DNA of 42,174 nucleotides from Methylobacter sp. (lineage in GTDB: Bacteria > Pseudomonadota > Gammaproteobacteria > Methylococcales > Methylomonadaceae). Under the pieces are notes generated by a model. The model had not been told where the DNA came from, ran no database searches, and saw only the letters and a list, made by a program, of their open reading frames with translations. Location: contig JBCKWP010000001.1 in the NCBI GenBank assembly GCA_038922455.1, forward strand, positions 1-42,174. Reading direction: 5' to 3'. Shown piece by piece: positions 6,070-36,590 of this stretch. The translations under genes were made by a program, and so were the position numbers. Every line of letters starts with the position of its first letter. Position 1 is the stretch's first letter.

Positions 6070-7261
6070 TTGACATCCTCTCCGCCCTAAAGGACGTGGA
6101 TTCCTACTGCTAGACGCTTATGCCCAAGCGCGAGAATGTTCCTAGCCGCATTAATATCTCTATCATGCGTAGCGCCACACTCGGCGCAAGTCCATTCTCT
6201 TATTCGCAAACCTGCTCTACCTTTCGGACTACTTTGGCTAATCAAGCCACAGCACGAACAAGTTTGGGTAGTGTAGTTTTCGTTGACTTCTAAAAACACG
6301 CCTTGCGTCGCTATCGACTTATATTCAAGTTGTGTTTTCAGCATGAATCAGCCAGCGTCTAAAACGGATTTAGCCATTTTAGTTTTAGCGAGTTTCTTAC
6401 TGCTGATGTTGCCAACGACTATTAAACTGTTTTCTTTTACAATTTTGTGGGTGAATTTGTGTATTGCGTCCTTGCGGGTGTTCTTTATCTTAGCGTGGAT
6501 GGCTCTAACGCGCTTTTTGTCTTTAGCACGTTGTGCTTTTCCAAGTTTAAATTCTAAATTTCTGTAGCAATCCTGGCGCTCCAAGGTGTCGCCATTTGAG
6601 CAGGTCGCGGTTGTTTTTAAGCCTAAATCAATCCCGACTTGTCCGCCTTGAGCCGCTTGTGCCACCGCTTCAACATGAATAACGATATTGAAATACCAGC
6701 GACCGCGTGAATCTTGACTCAAGCAGCCTGAGCGAAAATCAAACTGACTCAAGCCGTAACTATCCCAGCACTTGAAATAATGCCCTGCATACCTTATTTG
6801 ACCGTTAACCCATTTAGCCGCGCCCGATTTGAATGGAACCCAGCCTAAGGCTTTTTTGCTACCCCCAGAACACCGCCAATTCAGCTTGTTCTTTTTGAAC
6901 TGTTTACGCGCTTTAGCATGAATGGCAATGGTTTCTTGAAACGCCGTCGAGTCGATAATCATGCCGCGTTCTTTGCGGATGACCTTTAACTCTTTCATCA
7001 GGTCAAAAGCCGAGGTACCAAAGTTCATGTAACCGACTTCTGGAACAGCTACCCACGATAATTCAGCGGAATCCGCATTAGCTGCGTTCCATACTTGATT
7101 AACATCAAAGGCCATACGATTTAACACGCTGGCGTGTTTATCGCGGACTCTGACTGAAAGGGTTTTTGTTATCGGTTTCATGACTGGAATATTAACATTA
7201 AGAAAAATCAACAGCACCCTTACATCCCCCACCTGAAGGAAGGGGCTTTACGGGCTTATTG
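6070..7261 (-). mobile_element. IS200/IS605-family tnpB-only element, copy 1 (1192 bp)
   Basis: Minus strand: TTAAC|CAATAAGCCCGTAAAG-hairpin ... GAAT-hairpin-GGATGTCAA; same length and ends as copy at 14580-15771; no TIR or TSD. Confidence 0.9.
6087..7181 (-). pseudogene. tnpB: TnpB RNA-guided endonuclease with nonsense mutation
   Basis: TGG>TGA at 6348-6350 (DAG*F versus DAGWF in copy 2) splits it into the 294-aa and 85-aa ORFs; GIDLG, CxxC..CxxC and DRDINAA present. Confidence 0.9.
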
Positions 7262-7281
7262 GTTAACGGGTAACGAACAAG

Positions 7282-8835
7282 CTATGCATATAGACTCAAT
7301 AAACCTTTACCAACAACAGCCCCATCATGTTCAATTTTTTCTAGGGTGTTGGTAACGCCGTCAATACCTTGCTCACTATTTTCTGGTGTTTTAGAAAAAG
7401 CTTGAGATTGTGATCGCCCTTGATCTGACGTAGAGTTCTGGGAAATATTTACATTGACCAGATTGAGCTGCTGAGTAGCCAGCATTTCCCGTAACTTGGG
7501 AATGGAGGCTTCAAGCATTTCTTTGACTTCCACATGCTGCGCTGTAAACATAATAGTTGCTTGATCTTTATTAACATCAATACGAATTGATATGGGTCCA
7601 AGATGCTCTGGATTCAGCTTGATTTCTGCTGCCGATATGGCTTTGTTATTCATCCATATAATCTGTTCACCCAGATCTTTGCTCCAGCCGGGATGCGTTA
7701 AAGGTCTTGTTATTGCCGGACTATCTGTTCTGCTGTCAATCAGCCTATGGGGTGTAAGCATATCTGCGGTAACTCCAGGTGCCATTTTTTCTATACCGGA
7801 AATGGAGGTCTGCTTTTCAAGCAACGCCGTTTTTTCAGCGGGATCTGTATTTTCCATGGCTTGTAAATTAAAACCCTGTCCATTCTGAATTGACTGGCGA
7901 AGAACAGTTTCTTTTTGCAGAAAATCGCCTGAGATAACATCCTCCTCACCCAGCATATTCAATTGAGCCTCATCAGGCAAAGGCGTTGCCAACGACGGTC
8001 CATTTAAAGCCATTGCCGCACTCATGTTTTGTGCTGTTGCCAATTCATCAGGCGTAAGGGATTTTAGCGCGTCAGTTAACGTAAGCAAAGTGGCTTCCTG
8101 GGCAACATCCTCACCCAGCATGTTCAATTTAGCCTCTTCAGGCAAAGGCCTTGCCAACGACGGTCCATTTACAGCCATTGCCGCACCCATGTTTTGTGCT
8201 GTTGCCAATTCATCAGACGTAAGGGATTTTAGCGCGTCAGTTACCGTAAGCAAAGTGGCTTCCTGGGCAACATCCTTGTTAAGGTCACTAGCAGCATTTT
8301 CTTGGTATGACAGGGGCAAATGCTCGTCGAGCCAAGCGGCAAGCTCTTCTTCGCCACCCTTCTGTTTCAGTAAGTCGCCTATGTCATGCAGGGTGTTTAT
8401 GGTTGGCGACTTAGTCATAATTTGCAACTGTTCGGATAATTCGATCTGGCCGTTTTCTTCTCTTAGCAAGCCTATCTGTCCCCTTAAGGCATTCGAAAAA
8501 TCTTTAGGAATGGCGCTATTTTTCGGCGAAGACTGAATCTTTACTTCAGTCGTACTCGTGCCGTGTGACACGGGTAATGAATTTACCAGAGAAGCCCGTA
8601 AAGCCCCTTCCTTTAGGTGGGGGATGTAAGGGTGCTTTTGATTTGTCTCTATAGTCATGTATAATTTTCCTGTTGGTTAGGCTGTAGCTGTCTAACTCCT
8701 GCTGTCTAGTAGTGATACGGGGACAGTGTGAAATAAGAGGAATAGCATCTTCCTCCCGTTCGGGCATGGACGGCTGTACTAAGGAATCCCCGTCATTCAT
8801 GAGGGGGTGGATGTCAAACCTTGTGTATTTATCAT
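7282..8835 (-). CDS. fliK: flagellar hook-length control protein FliK, interrupted after codon 6 by a 231-bp element; in-frame alternative ATG at 8658
   Basis: C-terminal AEIKLNPEHLGPI...LEASIPKLREML...GLLSLYA domain; removing 8587-8817 gives MINTQG|VNSLPVS with GGAG RBS upstream of 8835. Confidence 0.88.
7945..8274 (-). repeat. 2 x 165-bp (55-aa) tandem duplication in fliK
   Basis: DVAQEATLLT...NMLGE twice; CTCACCCAGCAT at 7945 and 8110, GGCAACATCC ending at 8110 and 8275. Confidence 0.95.
8587..8817 (+). mobile_element. non-autonomous IS605-type mini-element (PATE-like), family A copy 1, 231 bp
   Basis: TTTAC|CAGAGAAGCCCGTAAAGCCCC... left end and ...GGAATCCCCGTC...GGATGTCAA right end shared with the tnpB elements; near-identical copy at 36098-36330. 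Confidence 0.9.
8638..8665 (+). promoter_or_regulatory. sigma70-like promoter inside mini-element
   Basis: TTGATT-N16-TATAAT; conserved in the second copy (36250-36277, minus strand). Confidence 0.65.
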
Positions 8836-8837
8836 GC
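8672..8837 (+). ncRNA. predicted stand-alone TnpB omegaRNA (scaffold ~8672-8817 plus flanking guide)
   Basis: Sequence blocks and stems homologous to the tnpB 3' end/right end, compensatory changes, GGCAU/AUGUC pseudoknot; 5' end inferred from promoter. Confidence 0.65.
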
Positions 8838-8859
8838 CCTGCTCCGAGATCGCTACTGA

Positions 8860-9249
8860 TTAAGTCAGCATGCTATTAATTCTTTTCACCAAATCGGCAG
8901 GTTTATACGGTTTTATCATATAAGCCGTTATGCCCGCCTCAATTGCTTCTTTAACCTTACTGCCTTCAGATGAAGACGTTAGCATGATGAAAGGCGTTTT
9001 TGCTAGCTTGGGTTCTTCTTGTACCGCTTTAAAAAATTCCAGTCCACTCATCACCGGCATGTTCCAGTCGCAGACCACGATATTAACCTTGACTTTCCGC
9101 ATCAGTTTTAGCGCCTCCTGTCCATCCGGCGCATCAAAAACATGTGTGAAACCGGCTTCTCGCAAAATAGCCTTGGTCAGGCTGCGCATGGACAAGACAT
9201 CGTCGACAATCAGGATTTTACTTTGTAGCAGTTCTTTGGTTATATCCAT
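8860..9249 (-). CDS. CheY-like single-domain response regulator
   Basis: ILIVDD, CDWNMPVMSG, MLTS and KPY receiver motifs. Confidence 0.9.
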   Translation of the reverse strand: MDITKELLQSKILIVDDVLSMRSLTKAILREAGFTHVFDAPDGQEALKLMRKVKVNIVVCDWNMPVMSGLEFFKAVQEEPKLAKTPFIMLTSSSEGSKVKEAIEAGITAYMIKPYKPADLVKRINSMLT

Positions 9250-9606
9250 TATTATTCCATATTACTCAGCTGATGTTACGCACCCATCATGAAAAATCAA
9301 TGAGTTATAAAAATTCCAATTCGCTACAGCTATTGATTCTTCTACAGGCCTGCGTAACATCAGTTACTCAGGATGCCAATAAATTAAATTGGATCGCATA
9401 TTCTTCAACTATACATCAAAATCAGGGGACTATTCAAAGCTAGCCATGATAACCGATTTAGGCACTTTGATCGTAATGCGACGAAGCCCTAAATTTCAAC
9501 TAGAAAATCGGCACGAAAAAAAATCTTCCTCTATAATGTCAAAAACCCTAAATAATACAACATTTTGGCCTTTCTTGGTTTAAGAATACAACACATGGAG
9601 AAAACA

Positions 9607-9969
9607 ATGGCAAGTATTCTTGCGGTTGACGATTCAACATCAATGAGAAAAATGGTTGCTTTTACCTTAAAGGGCGCCGGATACGAAGTCGAAGAAGCAA
9701 TAGATGGGGTTGATGCCTTGGCAAAAGCTCAAACAATGCAATTTGATTGCATTGTTACCGATGTCAATATGCCCAATAAAGACGGGATAACCCTGATCAG
9801 AGAACTGCGATTACTAGCGGATTACAAATATATACCGATGCTGATGCTAACGACTGAATCAAGTATTGAAAAAAAACAAGAGGGCAAAGCCGCTGGCGCA
9901 ACCGGCTGGATTGTCAAGCCTTTTGACCCGGATCAGTTGTTAAAGACCTTAAAGAAAGTTCTTGGGTAA
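9607..9969 (+). CDS. cheY: chemotaxis response regulator CheY
   Basis: ILAVDDS, TDVNMP, LTTES and GATGWIVKPF motifs; precedes cheA; GGAG RBS supports start at 9607. Confidence 0.9.
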   Translation: MASILAVDDSTSMRKMVAFTLKGAGYEVEEAIDGVDALAKAQTMQFDCIVTDVNMPNKDGITLIRELRLLADYKYIPMLMLTTESSIEKKQEGKAAGATGWIVKPFDPDQLLKTLKKVLG

Positions 9970-10010
9970 TCGCATGACTTCAGTAAATTCAGGGATATTA
10001 AGGTAAGTTT

Positions 10011-12107
10011 ATGGCTATCGATATGTCGCAGTTTCATCAGGTCTTTTTCGAAGAATGTTTCGAAGGGTTAGAGGCAATGGAATTAGGATTGTTAAATCTT
10101 GATACGGGAGATATTGATTCGGAAGTCATAAATACCATTTTTAGAGGAGCGCATTCCATAAAAGGGGGGAGCTGCACGTTTGGCTTTAACGAGGTTGCTG
10201 ATTTTACCCATATCATGGAAACTCTGCTCGACGAAATGCGGGATGGGCGCAGAAAAGTGACTCAGCTCGTGATTGATGTGCTGCTAGGCTCTGTTGACTG
10301 CCTACGAACCATGCTTACTTCGAACCAGGCTGGGCAGGATGTAGATGGTGCTACCGTAGAAAAATATAGAGCCGCGCTGGAAATTGAGCTGAATGGTTCC
10401 GTAAAAGAACCGGCGGCAACCGCTTCCGTGAAAATCCAGATAGTCAATGAAAGCTCAGCAATGGCCACTGTTGCCGATGAAGGTGCATTGATCGAGAAAG
10501 GCTGGAAAATCGCTTTTTGCCCCTATCTGGACTTACTCAAAACCGGTAATGATCCTGTCCGAATGTTTCGGGAGCTAGCGGAATTAGGTCAATACAGCGT
10601 TTCTGTCGGTACTCAGGATATACCTGCGTTTGATGAATTGGATCCTGATGAATGCAATTTATCCTGGACGTTAGAAGTTGTTGGCGATATTGCTGTCGAG
10701 GAAGTTAAGGAGATTTTTAGCTGGGTTGAAGGAGACTGTGAACTCGATATTCAGCCATTCACTAAAACAACCGCTCAACCAGCGCCAGTAGAAAAAATAA
10801 CGGCAGCAGAATTACCCGCCCAAGACCTTCAACAACTTAAAGCTGAACAAGTAGAGACCACTATCTACCTCAATACTGAGCCCCCTAGGCCAGAGGTGCG
10901 GCAATCGGATAATGATCAACTTAAAACATCGGTCAAAGCTTCAAGCTCTATTCGTGTGGATACCAATAAAATTGATACCTTGATCAACATGGTGGGTGAG
11001 GTTGTTATCACTCAATCAATGCTGAGTTTAATCGGTGAAAATTTTGCCATAGATCAACTCCCCCAGCTCAAAAGAGGACTTGCGCAGCTTGAACGCCATA
11101 TTCGTGACATGCAACAAAGTGTTATGAATATTCGAATGGTTCCTATCAGTTTTGTATTTAGCCGCTTCCCACGTCTAGTGCATGACATCAGCTCCAAATT
11201 AGGCAAAAAAATTGAGTTGAAACTGGTCGGAGAAAATACGGAAGTTGATAAGGCCGTCGTTGAGTTGATTAGTGATCCTTTGGTGCATTTGATTAGAAAC
11301 AGCCTGGATCATGGCATAGAAATTCCGGCTGACAGGATTGCGGCAGGTAAGTCAGAAACAGGTACCATTGAATTAAATGCCTATCATCGGGGCGGGCATA
11401 TTGTTATTGAAATAAGTGACGACGGTCGAGGTCTTGATAGAAATAAGCTGATCTTAAAAGCCATTCAAAATGGGCTTATCGATGAAAGCAGCATTCTGAC
11501 CGATAAACAAGCATTTGAATTAATTTTTATGCCAGGTTTTTCTACGGCAGAAAGCGTTACCGATATTTCGGGTCGCGGTGTCGGTATGGATGTCGTCAGA
11601 AGAAATATTCAAGCTTTAGGTGGAAACGTCGAAATTATTTCCAATCTTGGGAAAGGGACAACTATTTCTATACATCTGCCACTGACACTGGCAATTATTG
11701 ATGGTCAATCTGTCGCTGTAGGAGATGAAATCTACATAGTGCCTTTAGTTTCGATTAAAGAGTCCGTTAACATCACTGAAAATATGCTCAATAAAATAGC
11801 CGATAAAGGTGAGACTTTCCGGTTGCGAGATCAGTACATACCCATCATAAGAATGCATGATATTTTTAATGTGCAGCCAAATAACAAATCAAATACAGGC
11901 GAAGGTGTCATTGTTGTTGTAGAAAGACAAGGAATATTGTGCGGCCTGTTTGTTGATGAGTTATTAGGACCGCAACAGGTGGTGGTTAAATCATTGGAAA
12001 CCAATTATCGCAGAGTACAAGGTGTTTCAGGAGCGACCATTCTTGGCGATGGTTCTGTTGCTCTGATCCTTGATATCCCGGGTCTGGTACGGTTCTCAAA
12101 TCGTTAG
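10011..12107 (+). CDS. cheA: chemotaxis histidine kinase CheA
   Basis: Hpt AHSIKGG, HLIRNSLDHGIE, GFST..SGRGVGMDVV, C-terminal CheW-like domain. Confidence 0.98.
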   Translation: MAIDMSQFHQVFFEECFEGLEAMELGLLNLDTGDIDSEVINTIFRGAHSIKGGSCTFGFNEVADFTHIMETLLDEMRDGRRKVTQLVIDVLLGSVDCLRTMLTSNQAGQDVDGATVEKYRAALEIELNGSVKEPAATASVKIQIVNESSAMATVADEGALIEKGWKIAFCPYLDLLKTGNDPVRMFRELAELGQYSVSVGTQDIPAFDELDPDECNLSWTLEVVGDIAVEEVKEIFSWVEGDCELDIQPFTKTTAQPAPVEKITAAELPAQDLQQLKAEQVETTIYLNTEPPRPEVRQSDNDQLKTSVKASSSIRVDTNKIDTLINMVGEVVITQSMLSLIGENFAIDQLPQLKRGLAQLERHIRDMQQSVMNIRMVPISFVFSRFPRLVHDISSKLGKKIELKLVGENTEVDKAVVELISDPLVHLIRNSLDHGIEIPADRIAAGKSETGTIELNAYHRGGHIVIEISDDGRGLDRNKLILKAIQNGLIDESSILTDKQAFELIFMPGFSTAESVTDISGRGVGMDVVRRNIQALGGNVEIISNLGKGTTISIHLPLTLAIIDGQSVAVGDEIYIVPLVSIKESVNITENMLNKIADKGETFRLRDQYIPIIRMHDIFNVQPNNKSNTGEGVIVVVERQGILCGLFVDELLGPQQVVVKSLETNYRRVQGVSGATILGDGSVALILDIPGLVRFSNR

Positions 12108-12141
12108 GCGTCGGCATCCTTGAGAATTCAGGAAAGAAAAT

Positions 12142-12654
12142 ATGGCACAAGAATTAAAAACCAAAAGCGCGGATCATAATTCTAATAACAACGAACGAGA
12201 AAACACAGCTCAGTACCTGAGTTTTACCTTGGACAGTGAAGAATACGGGGTTGATATTCTTCGTGTTCAGGAAATTCGTAGTTGGGAACCTGTGTCCAGA
12301 ATACCGAATGTGCCGCACTATGAGAAGGGCGTGGTTAATTTACGGGGATCTATCGTGCCGATTATCGACTTGCGTGAAAAACTCTGCATAAAATTTAAAG
12401 AATATACTCCTTTGACAGTCGTCGTTGTTTTACAAACCAGTGATGACAATAAAACCAGAACCATGGGCGTCGTTGTTGATTCAGTCTCTGATGTCATTAC
12501 CTTTGACAAAACCAAAATTCAGGGTACACCCGATTTTGGTACTAAAGTCAGTAATGAATTTATTAATGGCTTGGTAATGGTCAATGAACGTATGCTTATA
12601 CTGCTTGATGTGGATAAGCTGCTTGAATTGGAAGACCTGGAGATGGAGTATTGA
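12142..12654 (+). CDS. cheW: chemotaxis protein CheW
   Basis: YGVDILRVQEIR and GVVNLRGSIVPIIDLR motifs. Confidence 0.96.
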   Translation: MAQELKTKSADHNSNNNERENTAQYLSFTLDSEEYGVDILRVQEIRSWEPVSRIPNVPHYEKGVVNLRGSIVPIIDLREKLCIKFKEYTPLTVVVVLQTSDDNKTRTMGVVVDSVSDVITFDKTKIQGTPDFGTKVSNEFINGLVMVNERMLILLDVDKLLELEDLEMEY

Positions 12655-13883: not shown

Positions 13884-13911
13884 CAGTTAACGCAGTCCCG
13901 CTAGTTCCTAG

Positions 13912-14013
13912 GTAAGCGTTACCTCCCCCTTTGAAAAATGGGGATTGAGGGGGGGTTATTTGAACAAATCTCCCCTAACCCCTCTTTTTCAAAGAGGGGT
14001 ACTGAACGCTTAC
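13912..14013. mobile_element. IS66-type MITE (102 bp) containing a palindromic repeat
   Basis: TIR GTAAGCGTT...AACGCTTAC; exact 8-bp TSD GTTCCTAG at 13904-13911 and 14014-14021; IS66 elements start GTAA and duplicate 8 bp. Confidence 0.75.
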
Positions 14014-14017
14014 GTTC

Positions 14018-14554
14018 CTAGAATAATTCTATATCATCGGATTGGCTATGTTGATAAGCATTTTTCGCCGCAATGGCATCATCGATAGATTTCCCTTCTA
14101 AAATGGCATAAAACATCATTTTTTCATCTTCCATTGTATATCTTGAGCGTATCTGATTTTGAAATTCACGCCATTCATTCGGACTATAAAGACGCTCAGG
14201 GTTTTCAAGGAGTTTTGATAAGCCTATTAAGTTAGATGTGACGTGCTGTAAGCATTGCTGCATCCGATCGTAGAACTGAAAGGCAATAATAGCCGTCTGA
14301 ATTTTAGCTTTAGCTTCCGAGCAACAATCCAGCACCTGCTTATTGGTGTCAGAAACATCAAGAGATAAAATATGGTTATTAATTGTTTGCATACTTTCGA
14401 CAATATCGGTAAACGATTCTGTCAGTGTATTCACTGATAACTCGCTGTCTTGGAGAATAACACTTACCTGAGCAGCTGATAAATTTAATAGTTTAATGGT
14501 TTCACGAATCTGACTCCAATCAAGATCGAGTTTTTCTGAATTTGAATAAGACAT
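14018..14554 (-). CDS. chemotaxis-associated hypothetical protein (helical, FQFYDRMQQ motif)
   Basis: 178 aa with AGGA RBS, downstream of cheB, ends DDIELF. Confidence 0.75.
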   Translation of the reverse strand: MSYSNSEKLDLDWSQIRETIKLLNLSAAQVSVILQDSELSVNTLTESFTDIVESMQTINNHILSLDVSDTNKQVLDCCSEAKAKIQTAIIAFQFYDRMQQCLQHVTSNLIGLSKLLENPERLYSPNEWREFQNQIRSRYTMEDEKMMFYAILEGKSIDDAIAAKNAYQHSQSDDIELF

Positions 14555-14579
14555 GTTTTACTGTTTCCTGGCGCAAATC

Positions 14580-15771
14580 TTGACATCCTCCCCGCCCTAA
14601 AGGACGGGGATTCCTACTGCTAGACGCTTATGCCCAAGCGCGAGAATATTCCTAGCCGCATTAATATCTCTATCATGCGTAGCGCCACACTCGGCGCAAG
14701 TCCATTCTCTTATTCGCAAACCTGCTCTACCTTTCGGACTACTTTGGCTAATCAAGCCACAGCACGAACAAGTTTGGGTAGTGTAGTTTTCGTTGACTTC
14801 TAAAAACACGCCTTGCGTCGCTATCGACTTATATTCGAGTTGTGTTTTCAGCATGAACCAGCCAGCGTCTAAAACGGATTTAGCCATTTTAGTTTTAGCG
14901 AGCTTCTTACTGCTGACGTTGCCAACGATTATTAAACTGTTTTCTTTTACAATTTTGTTGGTGAATTTGTGTATTGCGTCCTTGCGGGTGTTCTTTATCT
15001 TGGCGTGAATCGCTTTAACGCGCTGTTTGTCTTTAGCACGTTGGGCTTTGCCCAGTTTAAATTCTAGGTTTCTGTAGCAATCCTGGCGTTCCAAGGTGTC
15101 GCCATTTGAGCAGGTTGCTGTTGTTTTCAAGCCTAAATCAATCCCAACTTGTCCACCTTTAGCCGCTTGTGCCGCCGCTTCAACATGAATAACGATATTG
15201 AAATACCAGCGACCGCGTGAATCTTGACTAAAACAGCCGGAGCGAAAATCAAACTGACTCAAGCCGTAACTATCCCAGCATTTGAAATAGTGACCTGCAT
15301 AACGGATCTGACCATTAACCCATTTAGCCGCTCCTGATTTAAAAGGAACCCAGCCTAATGCGCGTCTTGCTCCACCGGAACACCGCCAATTCAGCTTGTT
15401 CTTTTTGAATTGTTTACGCGCTTTAGCATGAACAGCAATCGTTTCTTGAACTGCCGTTGAGTCGATAATCATGCCGCGTTGTTTGCGGATGACCTTTAAC
15501 TCTTTCATCAGGTCAAAAGCCGAGGTACCAAAGTTCATGTAACCGACTTCTGGAACAGCTACCCACGATAATTCAGCGGAATCCGCATTAGCTGCGTTCC
15601 ATACTTGATTAACATCAAAGGCCATACGATTTAACACGCTGGCGTGTTTATCGCGGACTCTGACTGAAAGGGTTTTTGTTATCGGTTTCATGACGGGAAT
15701 ATTAACATTAAGAAAAATCAAAAGCACCCTTACATCCCCCACCTGAAGGAATGGGCTTTACGGGCTTATTG
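14580..15771 (-). mobile_element. IS200/IS605-family tnpB-only element, copy 2 (1192 bp)
   Basis: TTTAC|CAATAAGCCCGTAAAG left end; GAATCCCCGTCCTTTAGGGCGGGGAGGATGTCAA right end. Confidence 0.92.
14597..15691 (-). CDS. tnpB: TnpB RNA-guided endonuclease (364 aa, intact ORF)
   Basis: GIDLG, VGN at the RuvC-II position, VNENYTTQTCSCC, CAECG..HDRDINAARNI; ATG 7 nt after TGnTAATAT suggests a leaderless transcript. Confidence 0.92.
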   Translation of the reverse strand: MKPITKTLSVRVRDKHASVLNRMAFDVNQVWNAANADSAELSWVAVPEVGYMNFGTSAFDLMKELKVIRKQRGMIIDSTAVQETIAVHAKARKQFKKNKLNWRCSGGARRALGWVPFKSGAAKWVNGQIRYAGHYFKCWDSYGLSQFDFRSGCFSQDSRGRWYFNIVIHVEAAAQAAKGGQVGIDLGLKTTATCSNGDTLERQDCYRNLEFKLGKAQRAKDKQRVKAIHAKIKNTRKDAIHKFTNKIVKENSLIIVGNVSSKKLAKTKMAKSVLDAGWFMLKTQLEYKSIATQGVFLEVNENYTTQTCSCCGLISQSSPKGRAGLRIREWTCAECGATHDRDINAARNILALGHKRLAVGIPVL

Positions 15772-15786
15772 GTAAAGTTGTACAGG

Positions 15787-16874
<1,088 letters not shown>

Positions 16875-16969
16875 TTATTGACATTATCCCTTACTACCTG
16901 CTAGTTTCTGCATCGTGCTTGTTCCTTAGCAAACTATACCCGACTATCCGCCGCTTGTTTATCTTTTAT

Positions 16970-17198
16970 CGGGAAACGCATAAGTCCACTTCCTTTACCT
17001 GCCTGTCGGCAGACAGCGGTGGGGGGATATAAGCATGCTCTTGATTTTTCTCGGCAGTCTAGTATAACGTACCACTGCGGCAGGGATAGCCGGTACTGCC
17101 AGTGGAGGGAATCTAAGTCGCTCGTTGAGCACAAGTCCCTCGTTCCGCAGTGTCCCTGTGAAACTGGAAGCTCCGTCCTTTAGGTTTGGGTACTTCAC
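16970..17198 (+). mobile_element. non-autonomous IS605-type mini-element, family B, with predicted omegaRNA
   Basis: Left-end hairpin, TTGATT-N16-TATAAC (17041-17068), right end GAAGCTCCGTCCTTTAGG...TTCAC; GTGAA(17158-17162)/TTCAC(17194-17198) complementarity; left boundary uncertain by a few nt. Confidence 0.75.
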
Positions 17199-17243
17199 AT
17201 CAACAAAAGATACGCTAGACAGATCTAAAAATTAGAGGTATTT

Positions 17244-17729: not shown

Positions 17730-17936
17730 CGGAAAAGCGCCGAGATACCCAGCCATTTAGGAAGAAAGGAGTGCTTTTGATTTTCGTTGTACATCATCGT
17801 GTGTAATATGCACGAAATAAGTTGAACAACTGTAGGAGATTCTGGTTAAATATCAGCGTCCAATTGTCAGTGAATCAGGCATTTCTCAATAGCGATGTTG
17901 GGAATCCCTTGTCCTTTAGGCAGGGGATACTGTCAA
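17730..17936 (+). mobile_element. degenerate IS605-type mini-element
   Basis: GTGCTTTTGATTTT block (17771-17784) shared with the left-end region; ends GGAATCCCTTGTCCTTTAGGCAGGGGATACTGTCAA. Confidence 0.6.
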
Positions 17937-17987
17937 TCAGAAACCCATCAATTATAGTATTCTAGTATTGAATAGAGAGACACAGTC

Positions 17988-20294: not shown

Positions 20295-20398
20295 GCCTTC
20301 GGCCATTAACCCATCAGACAGGTCTGATAGTGGTAATCGGGTTATAGGGGCGGCTTTTACCCTTCAATGTAATAGACATCTTTCCTAAATACAGTTCT

Positions 20399-20518
20399 GT
20401 AGGCCGGAATAAGCCGGTTCGAGCGAAAGCGAGAATCGGTGTTTCCGGCAGACGCCACCCGAATTCGCCGGAAACGCCACCTCGCGCTACGCGCTTGGAT
20501 GGTCTTATTCCGGCCTAC
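20399..20518. repeat. GTAG-type REP inverted pair (REPIN-like)
   Basis: GTAGGCCGGAATAAG ... CTTATTCCGGCCTAC. Confidence 0.85.
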
Positions 20519-20557
20519 CCACCTACCATTAAGTTAAGCTAAAAATAATTATGGTTA

Positions 20558-20627
20558 ATGTTGTGGGCGCGAATTTATTCGCGCCGTATAAACTTAGAAA
20601 GCGCGAATAAATTCGCGCCCACAACAT
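20558..20627. repeat. REP-like inverted pair
   Basis: ATGTTGTGGGCGCGAATTTATTCGCGC ... GCGCGAATAAATTCGCGCCCACAACAT. Confidence 0.85.
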
Positions 20628-20643
20628 ATAAATCCTTAACTTA

Positions 20644-21525
20644 ATGGCAGTGTACTTAGAACCTGAGAACAACATCAACATGGACAAAGATCCCGAACAA
20701 AAAGAATTTTTATTTACGCCGTCTGACTTTGAGCGTATCCGCACCCTGCTGTACCAGCACAGTGGCATCAAACTCAACGATAGCAAAATGGATATGGTGT
20801 ATGGTCGCCTGGCCAGGCGCTTGCGTGCCACTGGACTGACATCGTTTAAAGACTATCTGGCAAGGCTGGAACAAGATCAGGGCGATGAATGGGAGGTTTT
20901 CATCAACTCTCTCACCACCAACCTGACGGCATTTTTCCGTGAACCCCATCATTTCCCACTGCTCAAGGAATATGTCCTGAGTTTGCACAAGCGCCCCCTG
21001 CGCTTGTGGTGTTCGGCCTCGTCCACGGGCGAGGAAGCCTATACCATGGCTATGAGTATGGTGGACGCTTTCGGCAGCTATAAACCGCCTGTGGAAATCA
21101 TCGCCACCGATATCGACACTCATGTGCTAAACAAAGCTAAAGTCGGTATTTATCCGCTGGATAGGGTGGGAAAGCTGCCGCCGGAAACTCTCAAACGCTT
21201 CTTTCTCAGGGGCACGGGAAACAACGCCAACCATGTTAAGGTACGCAAGGAGTTATGCGATTTGATCAGCTTCCGCCAGCTCAACTTGCTAGATACCGAC
21301 TGGCCTATTAACGGGAAATTCGATGTCATTTTCTGCCGTAACGTCATGATCTATTTTGATAAGGATACCCAATATAAAATTCTCAAGCGTTTTGCGCCGA
21401 TGCTGGAGCCACACGGATTGTTGTTCGCCGGTCACTCGGAAAGCCTGCATCATGCGGCTGACTTATTCAAATTGCGTGGACAGACCGTCTACGAGCTCAC
21501 CCCGCAAACCCGACATTCACGGTAA
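20644..21525 (+). CDS. cheR: chemotaxis methyltransferase CheR
   Basis: LTTNLTAFFRE.HHF, SSTGEEAY, FCRNVMIYFD and GHSE motifs; start may be 20680. Confidence 0.96.
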   Translation: MAVYLEPENNINMDKDPEQKEFLFTPSDFERIRTLLYQHSGIKLNDSKMDMVYGRLARRLRATGLTSFKDYLARLEQDQGDEWEVFINSLTTNLTAFFREPHHFPLLKEYVLSLHKRPLRLWCSASSTGEEAYTMAMSMVDAFGSYKPPVEIIATDIDTHVLNKAKVGIYPLDRVGKLPPETLKRFFLRGTGNNANHVKVRKELCDLISFRQLNLLDTDWPINGKFDVIFCRNVMIYFDKDTQYKILKRFAPMLEPHGLLFAGHSESLHHAADLFKLRGQTVYELTPQTRHSR

Positions 21526-21539: not shown

Positions 21540-22184
21540 GTGACCGCCAAAGCCAGAGTTGATCCGCTCATGCCTTCATCCGATGGGTCCGACCAGGATC
21601 CAGAACCTAATTTATATTATGACGAATATTTCAATATCGATGCGGTCAAGATTTTACCCGGTGAATATTATGCCACCGCACGCCCCATGCTCATCGTTAC
21701 CGTGCTGGGTTCCTGTGTTGCCGCCTGCATCCGGGATAAAGTCAGCGGTATTAGCGGTATGAATCACTTCATGTTGCCGGCGGCCAGTGCTTTCGAAGAA
21801 CCCGTCAACGATTCTGCCTGCTATGGGACTTATGCGATGGTAGCTCTCATCAATCAGTTACTTGAAATGGGCGCGCAGCGGAGAAGCCTGGAAGCCAAGA
21901 TATTCGGCGGCGGCAATCTGCTAAAAGACTGCAAGACTGCCCGCGTCGGTGAACGTAATGCCTCATTCGTACGCAATTATCTGAAGCTAGAACAAATACC
22001 TATCGTGGCGGAAGATTTACTTGGCATTTATCCACGTAAAGTCTACTTTTTCACGGATCATGGCAAGGTCATGGTTAAAAAGTTAATAAGGTTGCACAAC
22101 AACACCATTACTCAGCGTGAGCAGGAACACTGCGAACGGATGCTCAACGAGAAAGTTTTCAGCGACACAGTGGATTTGTTTTGA
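21540..22184 (+). CDS. cheD: chemoreceptor glutamine deamidase CheD (second copy)
   Basis: KILPGEYY, TVLGSCVAAC and MNHFMLP motifs. Confidence 0.94.
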   Translation: MTAKARVDPLMPSSDGSDQDPEPNLYYDEYFNIDAVKILPGEYYATARPMLIVTVLGSCVAACIRDKVSGISGMNHFMLPAASAFEEPVNDSACYGTYAMVALINQLLEMGAQRRSLEAKIFGGGNLLKDCKTARVGERNASFVRNYLKLEQIPIVAEDLLGIYPRKVYFFTDHGKVMVKKLIRLHNNTITQREQEHCERMLNEKVFSDTVDLF

Positions 22185-22244
22185 TGCTACGAAATTGAGC
22201 TTGAACGGTTCACGGCATATCGCAACTGATTTTTTAGAATGTCA

Positions 22245-22344
22245 AGGCGTGTAATGTCCGATAAAATAGCGACCCTTATCAAAAAAAAATAACGGGTAAA
22301 AAACAAGCTAAAAAATTATTCTTTCTCTATTTGTAACGCAATAA
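22245..22344 (+). pseudogene. probable 3' remnant of fliL
   Basis: With two frameshifts reads RRVMSDKIATLI/KITGKKQAKKLFFL/FVTQ*, ending 4 nt before fliM; FliL typically ends LF.T.FV.Q. Confidence 0.6.
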
Positions 22345-22348
22345 ATAT

Positions 22349-23332
22349 ATGGCTGATTTACTTTCACAAGAAGAAATTAATGCGCTGCTCCAGGGTATGG
22401 ATGATGGTGATATTGATACTGAGACTGAAACCGATGAGCTTCACCAGGTAAGTGAGGCCAAAAAATACGATTTTGGCAGCTATGAAAGGATTATTCTCAG
22501 GCGTATTCCAGCCCTTGAAATGATTAATGAACGGTTCTACAAATCTTTACGTGCAGCACTGTTCAAATTTCTACGCCGTTCGCCGGAAGTTTTCATGTCA
22601 GGTATTCAGATTAAGCCGTTTTCCGAATATATAGACGATTTGCATGTACCCACCAATTTGAATGTTATTCGATTTGCTCCGTTGCGTGGGCGGGCATTGA
22701 TAGTCATCGAACCGAGTTTAATTTTTACTGTGGTAGATAATTTTTTTGGTGGTGGCGGACAGTTTAATGATGACTCAACGCAGGATCGAGAATTTTCAAT
22801 GACTGAAATGCGGATCGTTCGCCTGCTCCTTGATATGATTTTGAAAACGCTAAAGGAAGCCTGGTCTCCGGTTATGGAACTCAACTTTGAATATCTGAGT
22901 TCAGAAATCAATCCAAGTTTTGCCAGCATTGTGGGTGCCAAAGACATTGTGGTTATCTCTACCATTAATGTCGCATTAGAGAGCGGCAGCGGAGATATTA
23001 ATATTGTCATGCCATCATCGATGATTGAATCGATCAGAGCTTTATTGGATACTTTTGGCGATAACTCGGGCGAATCTGATGTGCAATGGAAGCTTGCAGT
23101 ACGCAATGAACTTCTGGCAACAGAGCTGAGTGTGGATGGTCTCCTGGTGCAAAAAAGCCTATCCATAAGAGAGGTCTTACAGTTGAAAAAAGGGGATGTA
23201 ATATCTGTTGACATGCCGAAAACGGTGCTGCTTAAGTCCGAAGGTGTCCCTCTGTTTACCGGTGATGCCTGTACTTCGGAGGGTTATTATGCTGTGCAGA
23301 TTATTGATAAGGTAAAGCATGAATCAATCTGA
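22349..23332 (+). CDS. fliM: flagellar motor switch protein FliM
   Basis: LLSQEEINALL CheY-binding N-terminus, FFGG, SpoA C-terminal domain. Confidence 0.96.
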   Translation: MADLLSQEEINALLQGMDDGDIDTETETDELHQVSEAKKYDFGSYERIILRRIPALEMINERFYKSLRAALFKFLRRSPEVFMSGIQIKPFSEYIDDLHVPTNLNVIRFAPLRGRALIVIEPSLIFTVVDNFFGGGGQFNDDSTQDREFSMTEMRIVRLLLDMILKTLKEAWSPVMELNFEYLSSEINPSFASIVGAKDIVVISTINVALESGSGDINIVMPSSMIESIRALLDTFGDNSGESDVQWKLAVRNELLATELSVDGLLVQKSLSIREVLQLKKGDVISVDMPKTVLLKSEGVPLFTGDACTSEGYYAVQIIDKVKHESI

Positions 23333-23409
23333 AGCAGTTCAGATGTAAGCGTTCAGGTTTTGACAATAACGATAAGTAGGTACCCATAACTGTTTTAACA
23401 AAACCCTGA

Positions 23410-23458
23410 TGTAGGAGCGGCTTTAGCCGCGAGTGTCGCGGCTAAAGCCGCTCCTACA
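23410..23458. repeat. GTAG-type REP perfect inverted pair
   Basis: TGTAGGAGCGGCTTTAGCCGCGA-GTG-TCGCGGCTAAAGCCGCTCCTACA. Confidence 0.9.
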
Positions 23459-23504
23459 GATTGTTAAACAACTTTTTGATTCATTACTTAGGAATGTGAA
23501 AAAA

Positions 23505-23870: not shown

Positions 23871-24310
23871 TGCCGGTAAGAATAATCGTGTGCGGGCTTT
23901 TATTTTTGTGGTTTCCTGTCGCCGCCATGCCGGGTACGGATATTCAAAAACAGACCGTCAGAACCGTGGCTTCCGGAGATATTGCTGCGTGGAGCATGGG
24001 CTTACTGATAGTCTTAAGTATTTTTTTCCTCTGTGTTTGGGGGGTACGTAAGCTAAATGGATTAACCGTTAGCGGCGCAGAAAAAATGCGCGTGATCGGA
24101 GGGGTATCGTTAGGCGTGCGGGAAAAAGTCATTTTGCTACAGGTTGGCAAAAAACAGCTCGTTCTAGGCGTGACGCCGGGGCGCATTGAAACCCTGCACG
24201 TTTTGGAGGGTGATGATTGCTTGATTAAGGAAGAAACCGTGTCCACGACTGCGGAAACAGGCTTTGCGCAAAAATTGCTGCAAGCGATAAAGGCTCGCTC
24301 TGATGCGTAG
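23870..24310 (+). CDS. fliO: flagellar biosynthesis protein FliO
   Basis: TM segment then [14 protein letters not shown]...LGVT; lies between fliN and fliP. Confidence 0.9.
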
Positions 24311-32491: not shown

Positions 32492-33279
32492 ACGTTTTTA
32501 ACCGCCTGTCCAACATTAAAAAAACGGATATTTCAAGTATCGCAGGTGTTTTGGTTGGTTTCGGCGCGCTCCTGTTGGCAATCATATTGGATGACGGCAA
32601 CCTCAACGCATTTATAAATATACCTGCATTGATTATCGTGTTGGGGGGGACATGTGGAGCAACGCTATTGCAATTTTCGTCGACCATTATTATCAGGAGC
32701 ATGAAAATGTTTTTGTGGGTGTTAATGCCGAAAAAAATGGATCTTTCGGAGCAGATTGACAAGGTGGTTTCTTGGAGCTATTTGGCACGCAAGGAAGGTT
32801 TATTAGGTCTTGAAAATGCGATATCTAATGAACAAGATCCGTTTATAAAAAAGGGCTTGCAGTTGCTGGTTGACGGAAGCAAAGTTGACGCCATCCGCGA
32901 TATATTGGAAATGGATATAGATTCCAAGGAAAGCATGGGCTTGCAGGCAGCAGGATTGTACGAAACTATGGGTGCTTATGCACCGGCATTCGGTATTATC
33001 GGCTCGGTAACTGGCTTAATTCAGGTGATGCAAAATATGACTGACCCAGAGCTTTTAGGGCGGGGAATAGCGACGGCTTTTGTCACGACTATCTATGGCT
33101 TGATTTTCGCCAACCTTTTTTTTCTGCCGGTTGCCAACAAATTAAAAAACCAGGTTCTGGCATTGACTCAAGCCAAGGAAATGCTGGTAGAAGGTATTGT
33201 CTCTATTGCCGGCGGCGAAAACCCACTCAATATCAAGCTGAAACTGGACGGTTATCTGTATGACGATTATAAAGGTTAG
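32476..33279 (+). CDS. motC: flagellar stator A subunit (MotA/MotC family)
   Basis: ARKEGLLGLE, APAFGIIG and GIATAFVTT.YG motifs; start uncertain. Confidence 0.85.
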   Translation: MDMRLNVFNRLSNIKKTDISSIAGVLVGFGALLLAIILDDGNLNAFINIPALIIVLGGTCGATLLQFSSTIIIRSMKMFLWVLMPKKMDLSEQIDKVVSWSYLARKEGLLGLENAISNEQDPFIKKGLQLLVDGSKVDAIRDILEMDIDSKESMGLQAAGLYETMGAYAPAFGIIGSVTGLIQVMQNMTDPELLGRGIATAFVTTIYGLIFANLFFLPVANKLKNQVLALTQAKEMLVEGIVSIAGGENPLNIKLKLDGYLYDDYKG

Positions 33280-33282
33280 ACT

Positions 33283-34176
33283 ATGGCAAGGCGTCGGAAA
33301 AGACCACTAGCGGAGACTACCCAGCATGACCGATGGCTGATTTCATATGCTGATTTCATCACCTTGTTATTTGCATTTTTTGTGGTCATGTATGCAATCT
33401 CTTCGGTTAATGAAGGCAAGTATAAGACACTGTCCGATTCATTGGGCGAAGCTTTTTCACGCGAAGAGCGACAGAGCTATAAGATTGACCCTATTCAGGT
33501 TGGCACTTTACCGACGCCTATCCAGCCTATCCCATTAGAAAATACCACGACAGTGGAAGTGGAAGTTGAAGTTGAAGTTGAAGTTGAAGTTGAAAAAAGA
33601 CGGGAATTGAGCGAAGAAATACTAAAAGAAAGAGAGCAATTGAACCATGTGGCTGATCAATTGGAAGAAGCTCTGGGATCGTTTATTGATGCCAATCTGG
33701 TTTCAGTCAAACGAAATGACTACTGGATAACACTGGAAATGAATAGCGAATTGTTATTCTTAAGCGGTGAAGCCACCTTATCCCCAAAAGTTCAGCCCGT
33801 GCTAGAAAAGATTGCCGAAGTTGTTAATCCGCTGCCCAATGCGATTAATGTTGAAGGACATACTGATAATATACCTATTGGCACGCTAAAATTTCCGTCG
33901 AACTGGGATTTGTCATCTGCCCGGGCAACCCGTGTAGTACAAGCGTTTATTAAGGAGGGCATTAACCCAACCCGTTTGTCTGCAATCGGCTATGGGGAAT
34001 TTCAGCCTATTGGCGACAATAAGATAGAAGAAGGCCGCTTTAAGAACAGGCGGGTCATTCTGGTGTTAATGTCGCAGGCTTTTTCACGTTATGGCGCTAA
34101 TGATGAAGAACGTGCCAAATTGTTAAATCTGGTGCCGACAGCCGTTTCTGACGGCATGCCGATTAGTAAACCCTAG
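33283..34176 (+). CDS. motD: flagellar stator B subunit (MotB/MotD family)
   Basis: WLISYADFITLLFAFF TM with conserved Asp; OmpA-like GHTD, NWDLSSARA and NRRV motifs. Confidence 0.88.
   Translation: MARRRKRPLAETTQHDRWLISYADFITLLFAFFVVMYAISSVNEGKYKTLSDSLGEAFSREERQSYKIDPIQVGTLPTPIQPIPLENTTTVEVEVEVEVEVEVEKRRELSEEILKEREQLNHVADQLEEALGSFIDANLVSVKRNDYWITLEMNSELLFLSGEATLSPKVQPVLEKIAEVVNPLPNAINVEGHTDNIPIGTLKFPSNWDLSSARATRVVQAFIKEGINPTRLSAIGYGEFQPIGDNKIEEGRFKNRRVILVLMSQAFSRYGANDEERAKLLNLVPTAVSDGMPISKP
33553..33594 (+). repeat. hexanucleotide microsatellite (GTKGAA)x7 in motD
   Basis: GTGGAA x2 plus GTTGAA x5, encoding (VE)7. Confidence 0.95.
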
Positions 34177-34196
34177 GTGACTCATAGGCGGCTAAT

Positions 34197-34355
34197 ATGT
34201 TAGAAATACCACCGCTATCCCCGGTTTATCCCGCCATAAAACCCGGAAAAATTAAAAAAGATGATCCCTTTCCAAGACAGCCGCAACGTAAGAAAAAGCA
34301 GGTATTGGAAGAGCAAGAGACTCAGCCCGTACAACATATCGATGAGATTGTGTAA
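34197..34355 (+). CDS. small hypothetical protein (52 aa), not in ORF track
   Basis: MLEIPPLSPVYP...QPVQHIDEIV*; fills the gap after motD; TAATG overlap with next gene. Confidence 0.6.
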   Translation: MLEIPPLSPVYPAIKPGKIKKDDPFPRQPQRKKKQVLEEQETQPVQHIDEIV

Positions 34356-34747
34356 TGATTGACCCTTTTCTGATGACCATTATCATGGCGGTTGTCACAA
34401 GTGTGGTTATTGTTATTGTGCTTGTTTGGCTGGTACGCACTCATCTGAAACTCAAGCACGATTACCAGGTTCTTGCGGATGTCGTACAGGGCCATAACAA
34501 TGATATTGCCGGTTTGTGTGCTGCCGCACTGGCAGCAGACGGGCGCAGGGACGCTACAGATGAACAGCTTAGTGTTTTATGCGCAAAAATTTCTGATTAT
34601 CAGTATAACGAACCCTCTAGCCATCCTTACAGCCTGGTTATACAAAAAGTACGTAGCGGCGCGAGCGTGAATGAATTAATGCAAAACTCGGGTTTAAGCC
34701 AGGATGAAGCGGCTTTATTGATTCGTTTGCATGGGTCTGGGGTTTGA
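34355..34747 (+). CDS. DUF2802-like membrane-anchored protein
   Basis: N-terminal TM; C-terminal GASVNELMQNSGLSQDEAALLIRLH. Confidence 0.8.
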   Translation: MIDPFLMTIIMAVVTSVVIVIVLVWLVRTHLKLKHDYQVLADVVQGHNNDIAGLCAAALAADGRRDATDEQLSVLCAKISDYQYNEPSSHPYSLVIQKVRSGASVNELMQNSGLSQDEAALLIRLHGSGV

Positions 34748-34758
34748 AGTCCAACGGT
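34739..34758 (+). mobile_element. partial Tn3-family terminal inverted repeat
   Basis: GGGGTTTGAAGTCCAACGGT, 19/20 identical to 39714-39733. Confidence 0.7.
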
Positions 34759-34897
34759 GGCTATTTTTGCCCATCCCCTAGGCTGTCGAAATAGTTCACG
34801 CTACCCAAGCTAGGTTCCCCCTGATTTTTAGCTATCAATAGCATCAAAAAATACCTGTCGTTTCTTGCGAACCGTGTAGGGGGCCTACCAGGAGCCT

Positions 34898-35030
34898 AAG
34901 TGCCATCTGCTGGTGGACACCTTGGGACTGATGTTGGTCATTGTGGTGACCGCCGCTTCGGTTTAGGATCGGGATCGGGATCGGGGCAAAACGGGGGGTT
35001 ATCGCGGAAGATTACTGGACTGGGTCACCG
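34898..35030 (+). pseudogene. IS5-family transposase remnant
   Basis: Translates HLLVDTLGLMLVIVVTAASV*DRD, then GGYRGRLLDWV after a frameshift/deletion. Confidence 0.7.
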
Positions 35031-35116
35031 AATGTAAGCGGTTCGTTTTGATATACATTAATAACGTACTGTCAATGTGTGTACATTTGTGCTATTTTAA
35101 AGGTAAAGGAGATATA

Positions 35117-35389
35117 ATGATGATAAGCAAACGTACAGACAGAATAGATCTTAGAGTTCATCCAAATGCCAAAGAAGCGCTTCAGGCAGCCGCCACATTG
35201 AGGCATAAATCCGTCAGTGAGTTTATTTTGGATAGCGCATTGGGCGCTGCTGATGAGATTTTGGCAGATCGGCGATATTTTGGCTTGAATGCCGAACATT
35301 GGGCTGCTTTTCAAGCAGCCCTCGATGCGCCACTGCGTCCTTTACCAAGACTTAAAAAGCTGATGCAGGAACCGGGGATTTTTGATTGA
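35117..35389 (+). CDS. DUF1778 (TacA/AtaR-like) antitoxin
   Basis: RIDLRV...AA.LRHKSVSEFI RHH-like region; AAGGAG RBS; overlaps GNAT gene. Confidence 0.88.
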   Translation: MMISKRTDRIDLRVHPNAKEALQAAATLRHKSVSEFILDSALGAADEILADRRYFGLNAEHWAAFQAALDAPLRPLPRLKKLMQEPGIFD

Positions 35390-35901
35390 CTACAAAACAG
35401 GAAAACCGACCGCGTATAGAAAAACTTCAACGCTTGCATGACGTTGATGTCTTCGATTGTGGCCAGGGTAACCTGAACCAGTATTTGACGCGTTATGCCC
35501 TGATGAGCCAACGCGCAGACGGGGCGCAAAGCTATGTTGGGGTAAACGGAAAGGAAATCATGGGATACTACACACTTGCTGTGGGTCATGTTGCTTATGA
35601 AGATGCACCTGAACGATTGACTAAAGGGTTATCTCGTAATTCCGTTCCTGTCATGTTATTGGCACGACTTGCAGTTGACCTTAGTTGGCAGCGCAAAGGC
35701 GTTGGAGCCGGTCTATTGCGGGATGCCATGCAGCGTACCGTACAGGTTGCCGACATTGCAGGCCTTCGTGCCTTTCTAGTTCATGCCAAGGACGATAGAG
35801 CCAAAGCCTTTTATGAGCATTTAGATTTTATACCTTCACTAACTGATCCTTACCACTTGTTCATTCTGCTCAAGGACATTCGAAAAATAATGAATGAGTG
35901 A
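35386..35901 (+). CDS. GNAT acetyltransferase toxin (TacT/AtaT-like)
   Basis: FDCG..LN.YL, LLARLAVD..WQRKGVG and VHAKDD.A..FY motifs. Confidence 0.9.
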   Translation: MTTKQENRPRIEKLQRLHDVDVFDCGQGNLNQYLTRYALMSQRADGAQSYVGVNGKEIMGYYTLAVGHVAYEDAPERLTKGLSRNSVPVMLLARLAVDLSWQRKGVGAGLLRDAMQRTVQVADIAGLRAFLVHAKDDRAKAFYEHLDFIPSLTDPYHLFILLKDIRKIMNE

Positions 35902-36037
35902 GTGATCGTTATTTGTCCAAAAAACCTGATTTAATGGTCATAGCATCTCCTCTGAGAACCGCAAAAACATAAAAGCGTATTGGGGTTAATTAACCCAAAG
36001 AAGGGTTTGTCCAGACACTCCATTGGAACCCTTGGTA

Positions 36038-36590
36038 TCAATGGCTTGTAGCCGAAATATCAATTTCAAAATCGCCAATTAGTTTTTTTATAACTTGTTG
36101 ACATCCACCCCCTCCTAAAGGACGGGGATTCCTTAGTACAGCCGTCCATGCCCGAACGGGAGAAAGATGCTATTCCTCTTATTTCACACTGTCCCCGTAT
36201 CACTACTAGACAGCAGGAGTTAGGCAGCTACAGCCCAACCAACAGGAAAATTATACATGACTACGGAGATAAATCAAAAGCACCCTTACATCCCCCACCT
36301 GAAGGAGAAGGGGCTTTACGGGCTTCTCTGGTAAAATTCATACTTGCCAATGAAGTTAATAGGCTACCCTGCAACAGGCGAAAAACGCAGTATTTCTTCG
36401 ACCTTGTCTGTGTCTACGGTTCGATAATGATGATGAAGCGCCGACAAAATGGTCGCATTATAGGAAATCACCGGATTGGCAATGAGTCGGATGGATTCGG
36501 CATTAATATCGAGTTCAATTTTAGGCTTTCCATTGAGCATTCTGCCGCCGCTGACTTTGGCAATGGTGGCGCTTAACGGGTGATACGATT
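36038..36590 (-). pseudogene. Tn3-family transposase C-terminal remnant, interrupted by mini-element
   Basis: Reads ...ESIRLIANPVISYNATILS...EEILRFSPVAG*PINFIGKYEFY|element|QVIKKLIGDFEIDISATSH*. Confidence 0.65.
36098..36330 (-). mobile_element. non-autonomous IS605-type mini-element, family A copy 2, 233 bp, with predicted omegaRNA
   Basis: Reverse complement near-identical to 8587-8817; preceded by TTTAC, ends GGATGTCAA. Confidence 0.9.

Follow-up and report, generated by a model that had tools for sequence, protein, structure and literature searches.

Gene-less IS605-group elements with a compacted guide-RNA scaffold in a Methylobacter motility cluster: likely defence of their own insertion sites

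What are six elements of the IS605 group doing side by side in a cluster of motility genes, when only one of them encodes an intact TnpB nuclease? The question is raised by a contig of 42,174 nucleotides from Methylobacter sp. (assembly GCA_038922455.1, contig JBCKWP010000001.1), which we analysed at its full length and call the window. Its genes are fli, che and flh genes, together with a TacAT pair and transposase remnants. The original prediction, made from the sequence alone, saw two tnpB elements and four non-coding mini-elements and proposed that one TnpB serves six guides in trans, either guarding the insertions or regulating motility genes. All six elements (E1 to E6) are real, but they fall into at least two families and are not one system, because E4 matches another TnpB family and E5 is decayed. 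We consider it probable that these are dispersed insertions, of which the gene-less elements E2 and E6 would be transcribed, load the TnpB of E3 and guard their own sites, and that the history of the DNA accounts for their crowding.

The window is contig C1 of its own assembly (G000; 1.78 Mb, 62% complete, 185 contigs). There are family-A ends on five of the elements: one has an intact tnpB, one a tnpB containing a stop codon, two are gene-less minis of 231-233 bp (mini-A) and one is a decayed remnant. The family-A elements apart from the remnant, with their parts, are as follows.

6070..7261, minus strand: E1, family A, tnpB only, with TGA at codon 278 (6348-6350); variant transposon-associated motif (TAM) TTAAC at 7262-7266
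6054..6069, minus strand: predicted guide of E1, host flank after fliJ, with no second target above chance
8587..8817, plus strand: E2, 231-bp mini-A with left end, promoter-like site, scaffold of about 150 nt and right end with damaged hairpin top; TAM TTTAC at 8582-8586
8818..8833, plus strand: predicted guide of E2, antisense to the first fliK codons
14580..15771, minus strand: E3, IS605-group, family A; TAM TTTAC at 15772-15776
14597..15691, minus strand: intact tnpB in E3, 364 aa, with D185, E301 and D342, and with G257 where RuvC-II normally has Glu; rearranged RuvC-II
14564..14579, minus strand: predicted guide of E3, just upstream of a gene for a 178-aa protein
36098..36330, minus strand: E6, 233-bp mini-A, 95% identical to E2; TAM TTTAC at 36331-36335
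36250..36277, minus strand: sigma-70-like site of E6, TTGATT-16-TATAAT, directly upstream of the scaffold (1 found against 0.5 expected)
36098..36249, minus strand: mini-A RNA scaffold of E6, 39 predicted pairs in 7 helices
36082..36097, minus strand: predicted guide of E6, nearest start codon 696 nt away

E1 and E3 are both 1192 nt long and are 94.6% identical. There are subterminal hairpins with guide tetranucleotides at both ends of E1, E2, E3 and E6, with AAAG at the foot of the left hairpin and GAAT/TCAA at the right end; the left ends of E4 and E5 are damaged. GAAT/TCAA is also found at the right end of IS608. IS608 inserts 3' of TTAC, has an AAAG guide at the foot of its left hairpin and keeps the target on excision (PMC5027513). 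The IS608-type ends that had been predicted were recovered in these four elements, but the target is better written as the five-base TTTAC (TTAAC at E1): in 18 full-length mini-A loci it is TTTAC in 15 and CTTAC, TTAAC and TCTAC in one each. The window elements further differ from IS608 in that they have no tnpA in cis and use both strands. In a separate Methylobacter record (L120, 2856-2965) two family-A left ends stand back to back on opposite strands.

Both ends are present and a transposase or nuclease gene is absent in E2, E6 and E4. Of 42 further genomes from the genus, 11 had mini-A matches, four of them at least 18-19 each (18 scored of 51-71 candidates), and the 18 full-length loci have common ends and a common interior but 17 different flanks. 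A comparison of mini-A with plasmid records gave a single match of 36 nt, to the right hairpin. The TTGA of the promoter-like site is invariant in all 16 aligned copies. The scaffold downstream of it covaries: 98.6% of alignment cells are paired and 14 of the 39 pairs, in six of the seven helices, have changed on both sides, a result reached by none of 500 shuffles, while slid controls gave 41-49%. An RNA model of mini-A detects family-A tnpB genes at their 3' ends with 25-58 bits. Its long-range helix, its junction and its last three helices can be aligned there, and a 56-nt coding insert in the tnpB RNA stands at the position of a 7-nt loop in mini-A. By the model matches and the aligned core, the mini RNA is a compacted family-A omegaRNA. 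The window had no Rfam match at gathering scores; five loci scanned at E values up to 1 gave weak matches only, such as HgcC with 25 bits over the right end of E3, and these were not used.

The family-A minis are thus of a kind already described in papers, as palindrome-associated transposable elements (PATEs) and standalone omegaRNAs. The PATEs of the ISGst group in G. stearothermophilus are likewise gene-less elements with the ends of tnpB-bearing relatives, and PATEs are described as often encoding omegaRNAs that are acted on in trans by the TnpB of other elements (PMC10055086). In contrast with these, the window elements have IS608-like ends (TTTAC/TCAA) and a TnpB with a rearranged RuvC-II, and their minis are a compacted non-coding scaffold with its own promoter-like site and with empty alleles in natural populations. 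The standalone omegaRNAs of OMEGA systems, reported as functional in trans, are also mobile guide genes that lack an effector and a transposase, and the genomes in which they occur have effector loci (PMC10691335); in the window the guides are seen to be each element's own flank and their use in trans is predicted.

The intact TnpB, when aligned to ISDra2 TnpB, has Gly in place of the RuvC-II Glu and a Glu 44 residues further on. These residues are kept in homologous segments found by tblastn (79 loci): D185 in 60/60, G257 in 64/64, E301 in 64/65 (with one gap) and D342 in 58/58. Close relatives of the protein come from records of Methylobacter, Crenothrix and other Methylococcales. There is a TnpB clade, RIIr-5, in which the RuvC-II Glu is replaced by Gly, an alternative Glu is conserved and the proteins are predicted to be active and mobile (PMC10691335). 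The E3 protein appears to be of this type (Gly with alternative Glu, and Asp in RuvC-I and RuvC-III), the likeness being one of residue pattern. With its catalytic residues conserved, it does not look like a dead regulator.

These features suggest a simple cycle. Each with a promoter of its own, E2 and E6 would be transcribed into compact guide RNAs, and these RNAs would load the single intact TnpB, that of E3, in trans. Loaded TnpB would be directed to the empty TTTAC site left when an element excises, and repair from an occupied copy would restore the element at the cut site. The steps are those described for other elements, in which excision by TnpA leaves the TAM and flank, TnpB cuts there and repair restores the element (PMC10055086). 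Here we infer transcription, loading, the activity of the rearranged TnpB and the source of TnpA, which may be encoded on the missing part of the genome or have been supplied by a past visitor. The promoter-like site, the covarying scaffold and the core common to tnpB 3' RNA make the first of the two roles originally proposed, a TnpB guarding insertions in trans, a likely one.

The six guides that had been predicted were found again, each occurring once and directly 3' of a right end (TCAA in five, TTCAC in one). They are the host flanks of the elements' own sites. Where an element is present, TCAA or TCAC, and no TAM, stands directly before the guide. A search of the assembled 62% of the genome for a second, TAM-flanked target of any of the six, as the original prediction had proposed, gave none above chance at 24,150 T[TA]AC sites; the best matches had a seed of 7-9 nt and 12-13 of 16 positions, and random 20-mer controls mostly gave 6-9 and 11-13. 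The E6 guide resembles positions 9297-9324, but this stretch has no TAM and is a host repeat, and it was rejected as a target.

The only full targets are empty alleles. We searched for these at E1 to E5 in two public runs from two studies (X1 and X2), which represent related populations and whose contigs are mostly 90-99% alike to the window; among the public runs listed as containing such sequence there was no RNA run. Two further features are needed here.

7282..8835, minus strand: fliK, interrupted by E2 after codon 6
9983..9987, minus strand: TTTAC between cheY and cheA, empty in the window and joined to a mini-A right end in one X1 contig

The clearest empty site is that of E3, where an X1 contig of 1518 nt runs from 14579 directly to 15772, skipping exactly 1192 nt and keeping TTTAC, with 255 letters on its short side. 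At E2 the joint 8586 to 8818 skips exactly 231 nt, again with TTTAC kept, in two X1 contigs (short side 24) and one X2 contig (short side 51). Both joints fit insertion 3' of a fixed target with no duplication of it. The joints at E2 and at 9982, the latter with an extra insertion, are shorter or shallower than the one at E3. A joint of 17794 to 14580 in X2 (depth 3.9, 18 letters between) was considered as one more family-A insertion and is too weak to count. Because close relatives lack at least two of the elements at these positions, the predicted guides are likely to defend their own insertion sites and not to regulate motility.

The first six codons of fliK are in frame with the body of the gene once E2 is removed, and there is an in-frame ATG inside E2 at 8658 with AGGA 9 nt upstream. 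Judging from the reading frame, this ATG could restart fliK with 24 element-derived codons. Further into fliK (7938-8267) there is a 165-nt tandem duplication, 94% identical; FliK length sets hook length.

Of the remaining two elements, one matches another TnpB family and one is decayed, and the proposal of one nuclease serving six guides is therefore not supported.

16999..17198, plus strand: E4, mini-B, with right end TTCAC and with TTTAC at 16994-16998; left hairpin partly replaced
17199..17214, plus strand: predicted guide of E4; similar sequence lies upstream of cheW2 in genome G241, with no element there
17730..17936 (about), plus strand: E5, decayed, with a family-A right hairpin, a degenerate left end and a 36-nt host-repeat remnant (17803-17838)
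17937..17952, plus strand: sequence 3' of E5, the fifth guide of the original prediction; single occurrence

The left hairpin of E4 has lost its 5' arm. The scaffold of E4 is related to the canonical tnpB fragments found on two contigs, C5 and C35. Over its 3' 125 nt E4 can be aligned with the 3' end of the C5 fragment, and also with minis from C28, C36 and C58; by its sequence it is no partner of the TnpB of E3. Its flank is the ordinary cheW2 upstream sequence in G241. E5 scores 15.9 bits against the mini-A RNA model and does not have the conserved scaffold. X2 has loose ends at 16911 and 17213, with other sequence on either side of E4, and holds the left part of E5 up to 17794; the status of E4 and E5 is not settled by them. 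Relatives of E4 were also seen on other contigs. On C28 (L189, 954-3797), a low-GC plasmid-like contig, a MobA relaxase-RepB primase frame contains a mini-B (2718-2938) and continues without a stop across it. A tnpB remnant on C35 (82-414) has TTAAC for TTCAC at its right end, which puts a TAM-like word directly before its own flank.

Why, then, are the elements crowded here? Six of the 13 right ends in the assembly lie in the window, within 2.4% of the bases (binomial P ~3e-7, a post hoc value from right-end profiles built mostly from the window's copies), and five of the six family-A right ends are among them. The density is thus not equal to the genome average, an outcome that would have counted against the original prediction, and the crowding is above chance in this assembly. 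Target density is ordinary, with TTTAC at 2.25 per kb in the window and 2.31 per kb in the genome. No genus-wide bias towards motility genes was seen in 52 stretches from relatives, where ends lie beside such genes only in G042 (tnpB after fliI) and G053 (an end beside the 178-aa gene), both element-rich genomes; the flagellar and chemotaxis blocks of G012 have no element ends.

The origin of the cluster offers an explanation. We compared it with genome G241 of another genus (g23). There the same unusual gene set forms a single cluster, in much of the same order (window 111-39289) and without element ends. Relative to G241, the fliE-fliJ block and cheB with the 178-aa gene are inverted in the window; E1 and E4 lie at or near inversion breakpoints, that of the fliE-fliJ block being at the E1 site. 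In a tree FliI groups with g23, and the alternative that joins G000 to its own genus is rejected (p-AU 0.027). Twenty-seven of the 36 proteins compared lie nearer to G241 than to three genomes from G000's own genus. In its housekeeping proteins G000 is as near to the genus as the genus members are among themselves; in FliI (84 vs 93%) and FliJ (69 vs 80%) it is not. The own-genus relatives that were compared have their motility blocks apart, beside rpsF, secG, fimV and others, and G000 has other DNA at those places. These comparisons suggest that the motility cluster was probably acquired from another genus and that the elements are likely to have piled up for this reason.

The more unusual part is a second motility contig, C22, that ties flagellar genes to a plasmid replicon. 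In C22 (L186, 3212-19227) flgL-flgB, flgA, motB and motA adjoin a Rep_3 initiator, five or six iterons of 22 bp, and ParA with a partner. The initiator is 75% identical to RepB of a plasmid in Methylotuvimicrobium alcaliphilum 20Z that is 128 kb long. The iteron array contains the sixth family-A right end, whose flank is an iteron copy; no other iteron follows a TAM. The link between C1 and C22 is a candidate only. With it, the cluster would have come from another genus, plasmid-linked via C22, and brought its own family-A population. The flagellar chromids of Marinovum are likewise a flagellar set on strain-specific plasmid-type DNA (PMC12843797), in Alphaproteobacteria; here the host is a gammaproteobacterial methanotroph and the link to a Rep_3 replicon is a single contig. 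A literature search at the level of listings gave no case of motility moving between methanotroph genera on a plasmid. The TacT of the window was rejected as a plasmid marker, being only 33% identical to a GNAT toxin beside a related plasmid RepB.

Several observations weigh against this account. IS605 TnpA was found neither in the window, as predicted, nor by a genome-wide Y1 check of the 62%-complete assembly, where three Y1 matches are, by reading of the sequences, RAYT-like or fused to another protein, and where four TnpA frames of related elements matched only a stretch of overlapping tnpB. No empty allele of E1 was seen in X1 or X2, and one X1 contig spans its left junction in the occupied state; no joint was seen there for E4 or E5. 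The E2 joint carries the flag 'between: not known', the extra-insertion joint at 9982 is a single contig with a depth of 2.6, and both runs were aligned at likeness 85, at which short joints may stem from other organisms. Covariation in the scaffold mostly separates two subfamilies (3 rows vs 12) and so rests on few events. On the side of history, support for the FliI branch with g23 is 83/87 and 89/89, some of the 27 proteins have no true ortholog in the own-genus stretches compared, and nine proteins (cheD2, fliP-R, flhB, flhA, fliA, motC and motD) are at least as close to the own genus, which makes the cluster a mosaic. C1 and C22 do not overlap and there is no rep gene on C1. Finally, there are three elements on each strand, a poor fit to insertion into one transferred or lagging strand; IS608 favours lagging-strand templates and stalled forks (PMC5027513). 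Divergent tnpA genes do occur in other records (L059, L062), beside a TnpB 86-88% identical to that of the window. A Y1/RAYT-like domain is also seen in frame within a 922-aa frame resembling a type I restriction subunit (C161, 1-2767).

Other roles for the elements can be weighed against these data. The second of the roles originally proposed, that TnpB and dispersed guides have been domesticated to regulate motility genes, has a precedent in TldR, which represses fliC in Enterobacter and resembles the present case in its descent from TnpB and its flagellar setting (PMC10705468). The RuvC-II Glu is indeed Gly, and for four of the six guides there is a start codon within 50 nt (three near translation starts had been noted; the element E2 itself is inside fliK and not beside it). 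This nearness is at chance level: a guide as close would result from 11 of the window's 28 non-coding TT[TA]AC sites, and the probability of at least four of six is ~0.17 (calculated by hand). TldRs are described as having lost RuvC residues and transposon ends and as having a conserved TAM-flanked second site (PMC10705468), and none of the three applies in the window, where D185, E301 and D342 are invariant among homologues, the ends are intact and the sites are polymorphic. With no TAM before the guides at occupied sites, no second target in the assembled 62% and no ends in the G241 cluster, we regard regulation as very improbable. Another view is that the minis are mobile elements resembling miniature inverted-repeat transposable elements, whose RNA is unused by the window's TnpB and is left over from, or serves, an absent TnpB. 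The 5' half of the mini scaffold cannot be aligned in sequence to the tnpB 3' end, with only ~70 nt being alike (75-79%), tnpB ends score far below minis in the model (44 vs 158 bits), and no tnpB with a mini-type 3' RNA was present in seven metagenome matches (five minis and two cut by contig ends). However, pairs are kept through two-sided changes in six of seven helices, the core junction matches tnpB RNA, and family-A tnpB ends stand beside minis in G012; this view seems to us improbable. It is also unlikely, in our judgement, that the motility set sits on a plasmid from another genus and that the guide cassettes act as an allele-specific drive. TnpB would then cut element-free alleles from sister strains or from excision, including a repaired fliK, and the flagellum would be locked into the FliK start encoded by the element.

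The crowding itself has two further explanations. Relaxed selection on motility in this strain, with insertions tolerated, was originally given equal standing. It would account for the interrupted fliK, for a cheB (15787-16865) frameshifted near 16602, where X1 and X2 have one base more, for the failure to find FliL in the assembly, and for the remnants in the window of Tn3 and of what we take to be IS5 and IS256. By itself it fits poorly: five of the six insertions are intergenic and such sites are open genome-wide, the general repeat density of the window is mid-range (3.3 per 10 kb, rank 18 of 48), and the reading frames of the remaining flagellar genes, in the window as in C22, are open. 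We therefore think this rather unlikely. The crowding could also be an artefact, if the assembly had dropped other copies or if the motility contigs stemmed from a different organism and were wrongly binned; the assembly is incomplete and in many contigs, the motility contigs have no marker genes and their proteins look foreign. Yet only 5 of 370 contig ends share at least two 13-mers with the elements, one being the known tnpB remnant on C35 and most of the others, by reading of the sequences, host repeats. The tetranucleotide distance of the window is mid-range (rank 22 of 36). The window has 14 repeat stretches in common with at least three other contigs. Of these, 12 are 89-97% identical, and the stretches of g23 that were compared (120 kb of G241 and 45 kb of G273) contain none of the 14, which argues against misbinning. 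An artefact is accordingly a doubtful explanation, and we retain the reading of self-guarding insertions in DNA with a foreign history.

Some further features of the window were noted. There is no fliL before fliM (22184-22349), where the relatives G004 and G057 have a FliL-like gene. The TacA/TacT (DUF1778/GNAT) toxin-antitoxin pair lies at 35117-35901, between an insertion sequence remnant and E6. The contig end (39398-42174) has two copies of a 79-nt repeat, a truncated Tn3 transposase and an IS256-like fragment. Palindromic host repeat families occur at 9260-9390, 13909-14028, 20370-20652, 23365-23495 and 38061-38119, and a host repeat at 13904-14013 is skipped in an X1 contig.

In summary, the locus adds a clean new case to a type of element that is already known, and its setting is unusual. 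It forms a natural test set, with one TnpB, two minis, and occupied and empty alleles in related populations, and it bears on the biological role of standalone omegaRNAs, which is stated to be unknown (PMC10691335). The mini scaffold of ~150 nt, trimmed of the coding insert, is a ready minimal guide for a little-studied rearranged type of TnpB. If the plasmid link is true, motility would be moving between methanotroph genera on a plasmid.

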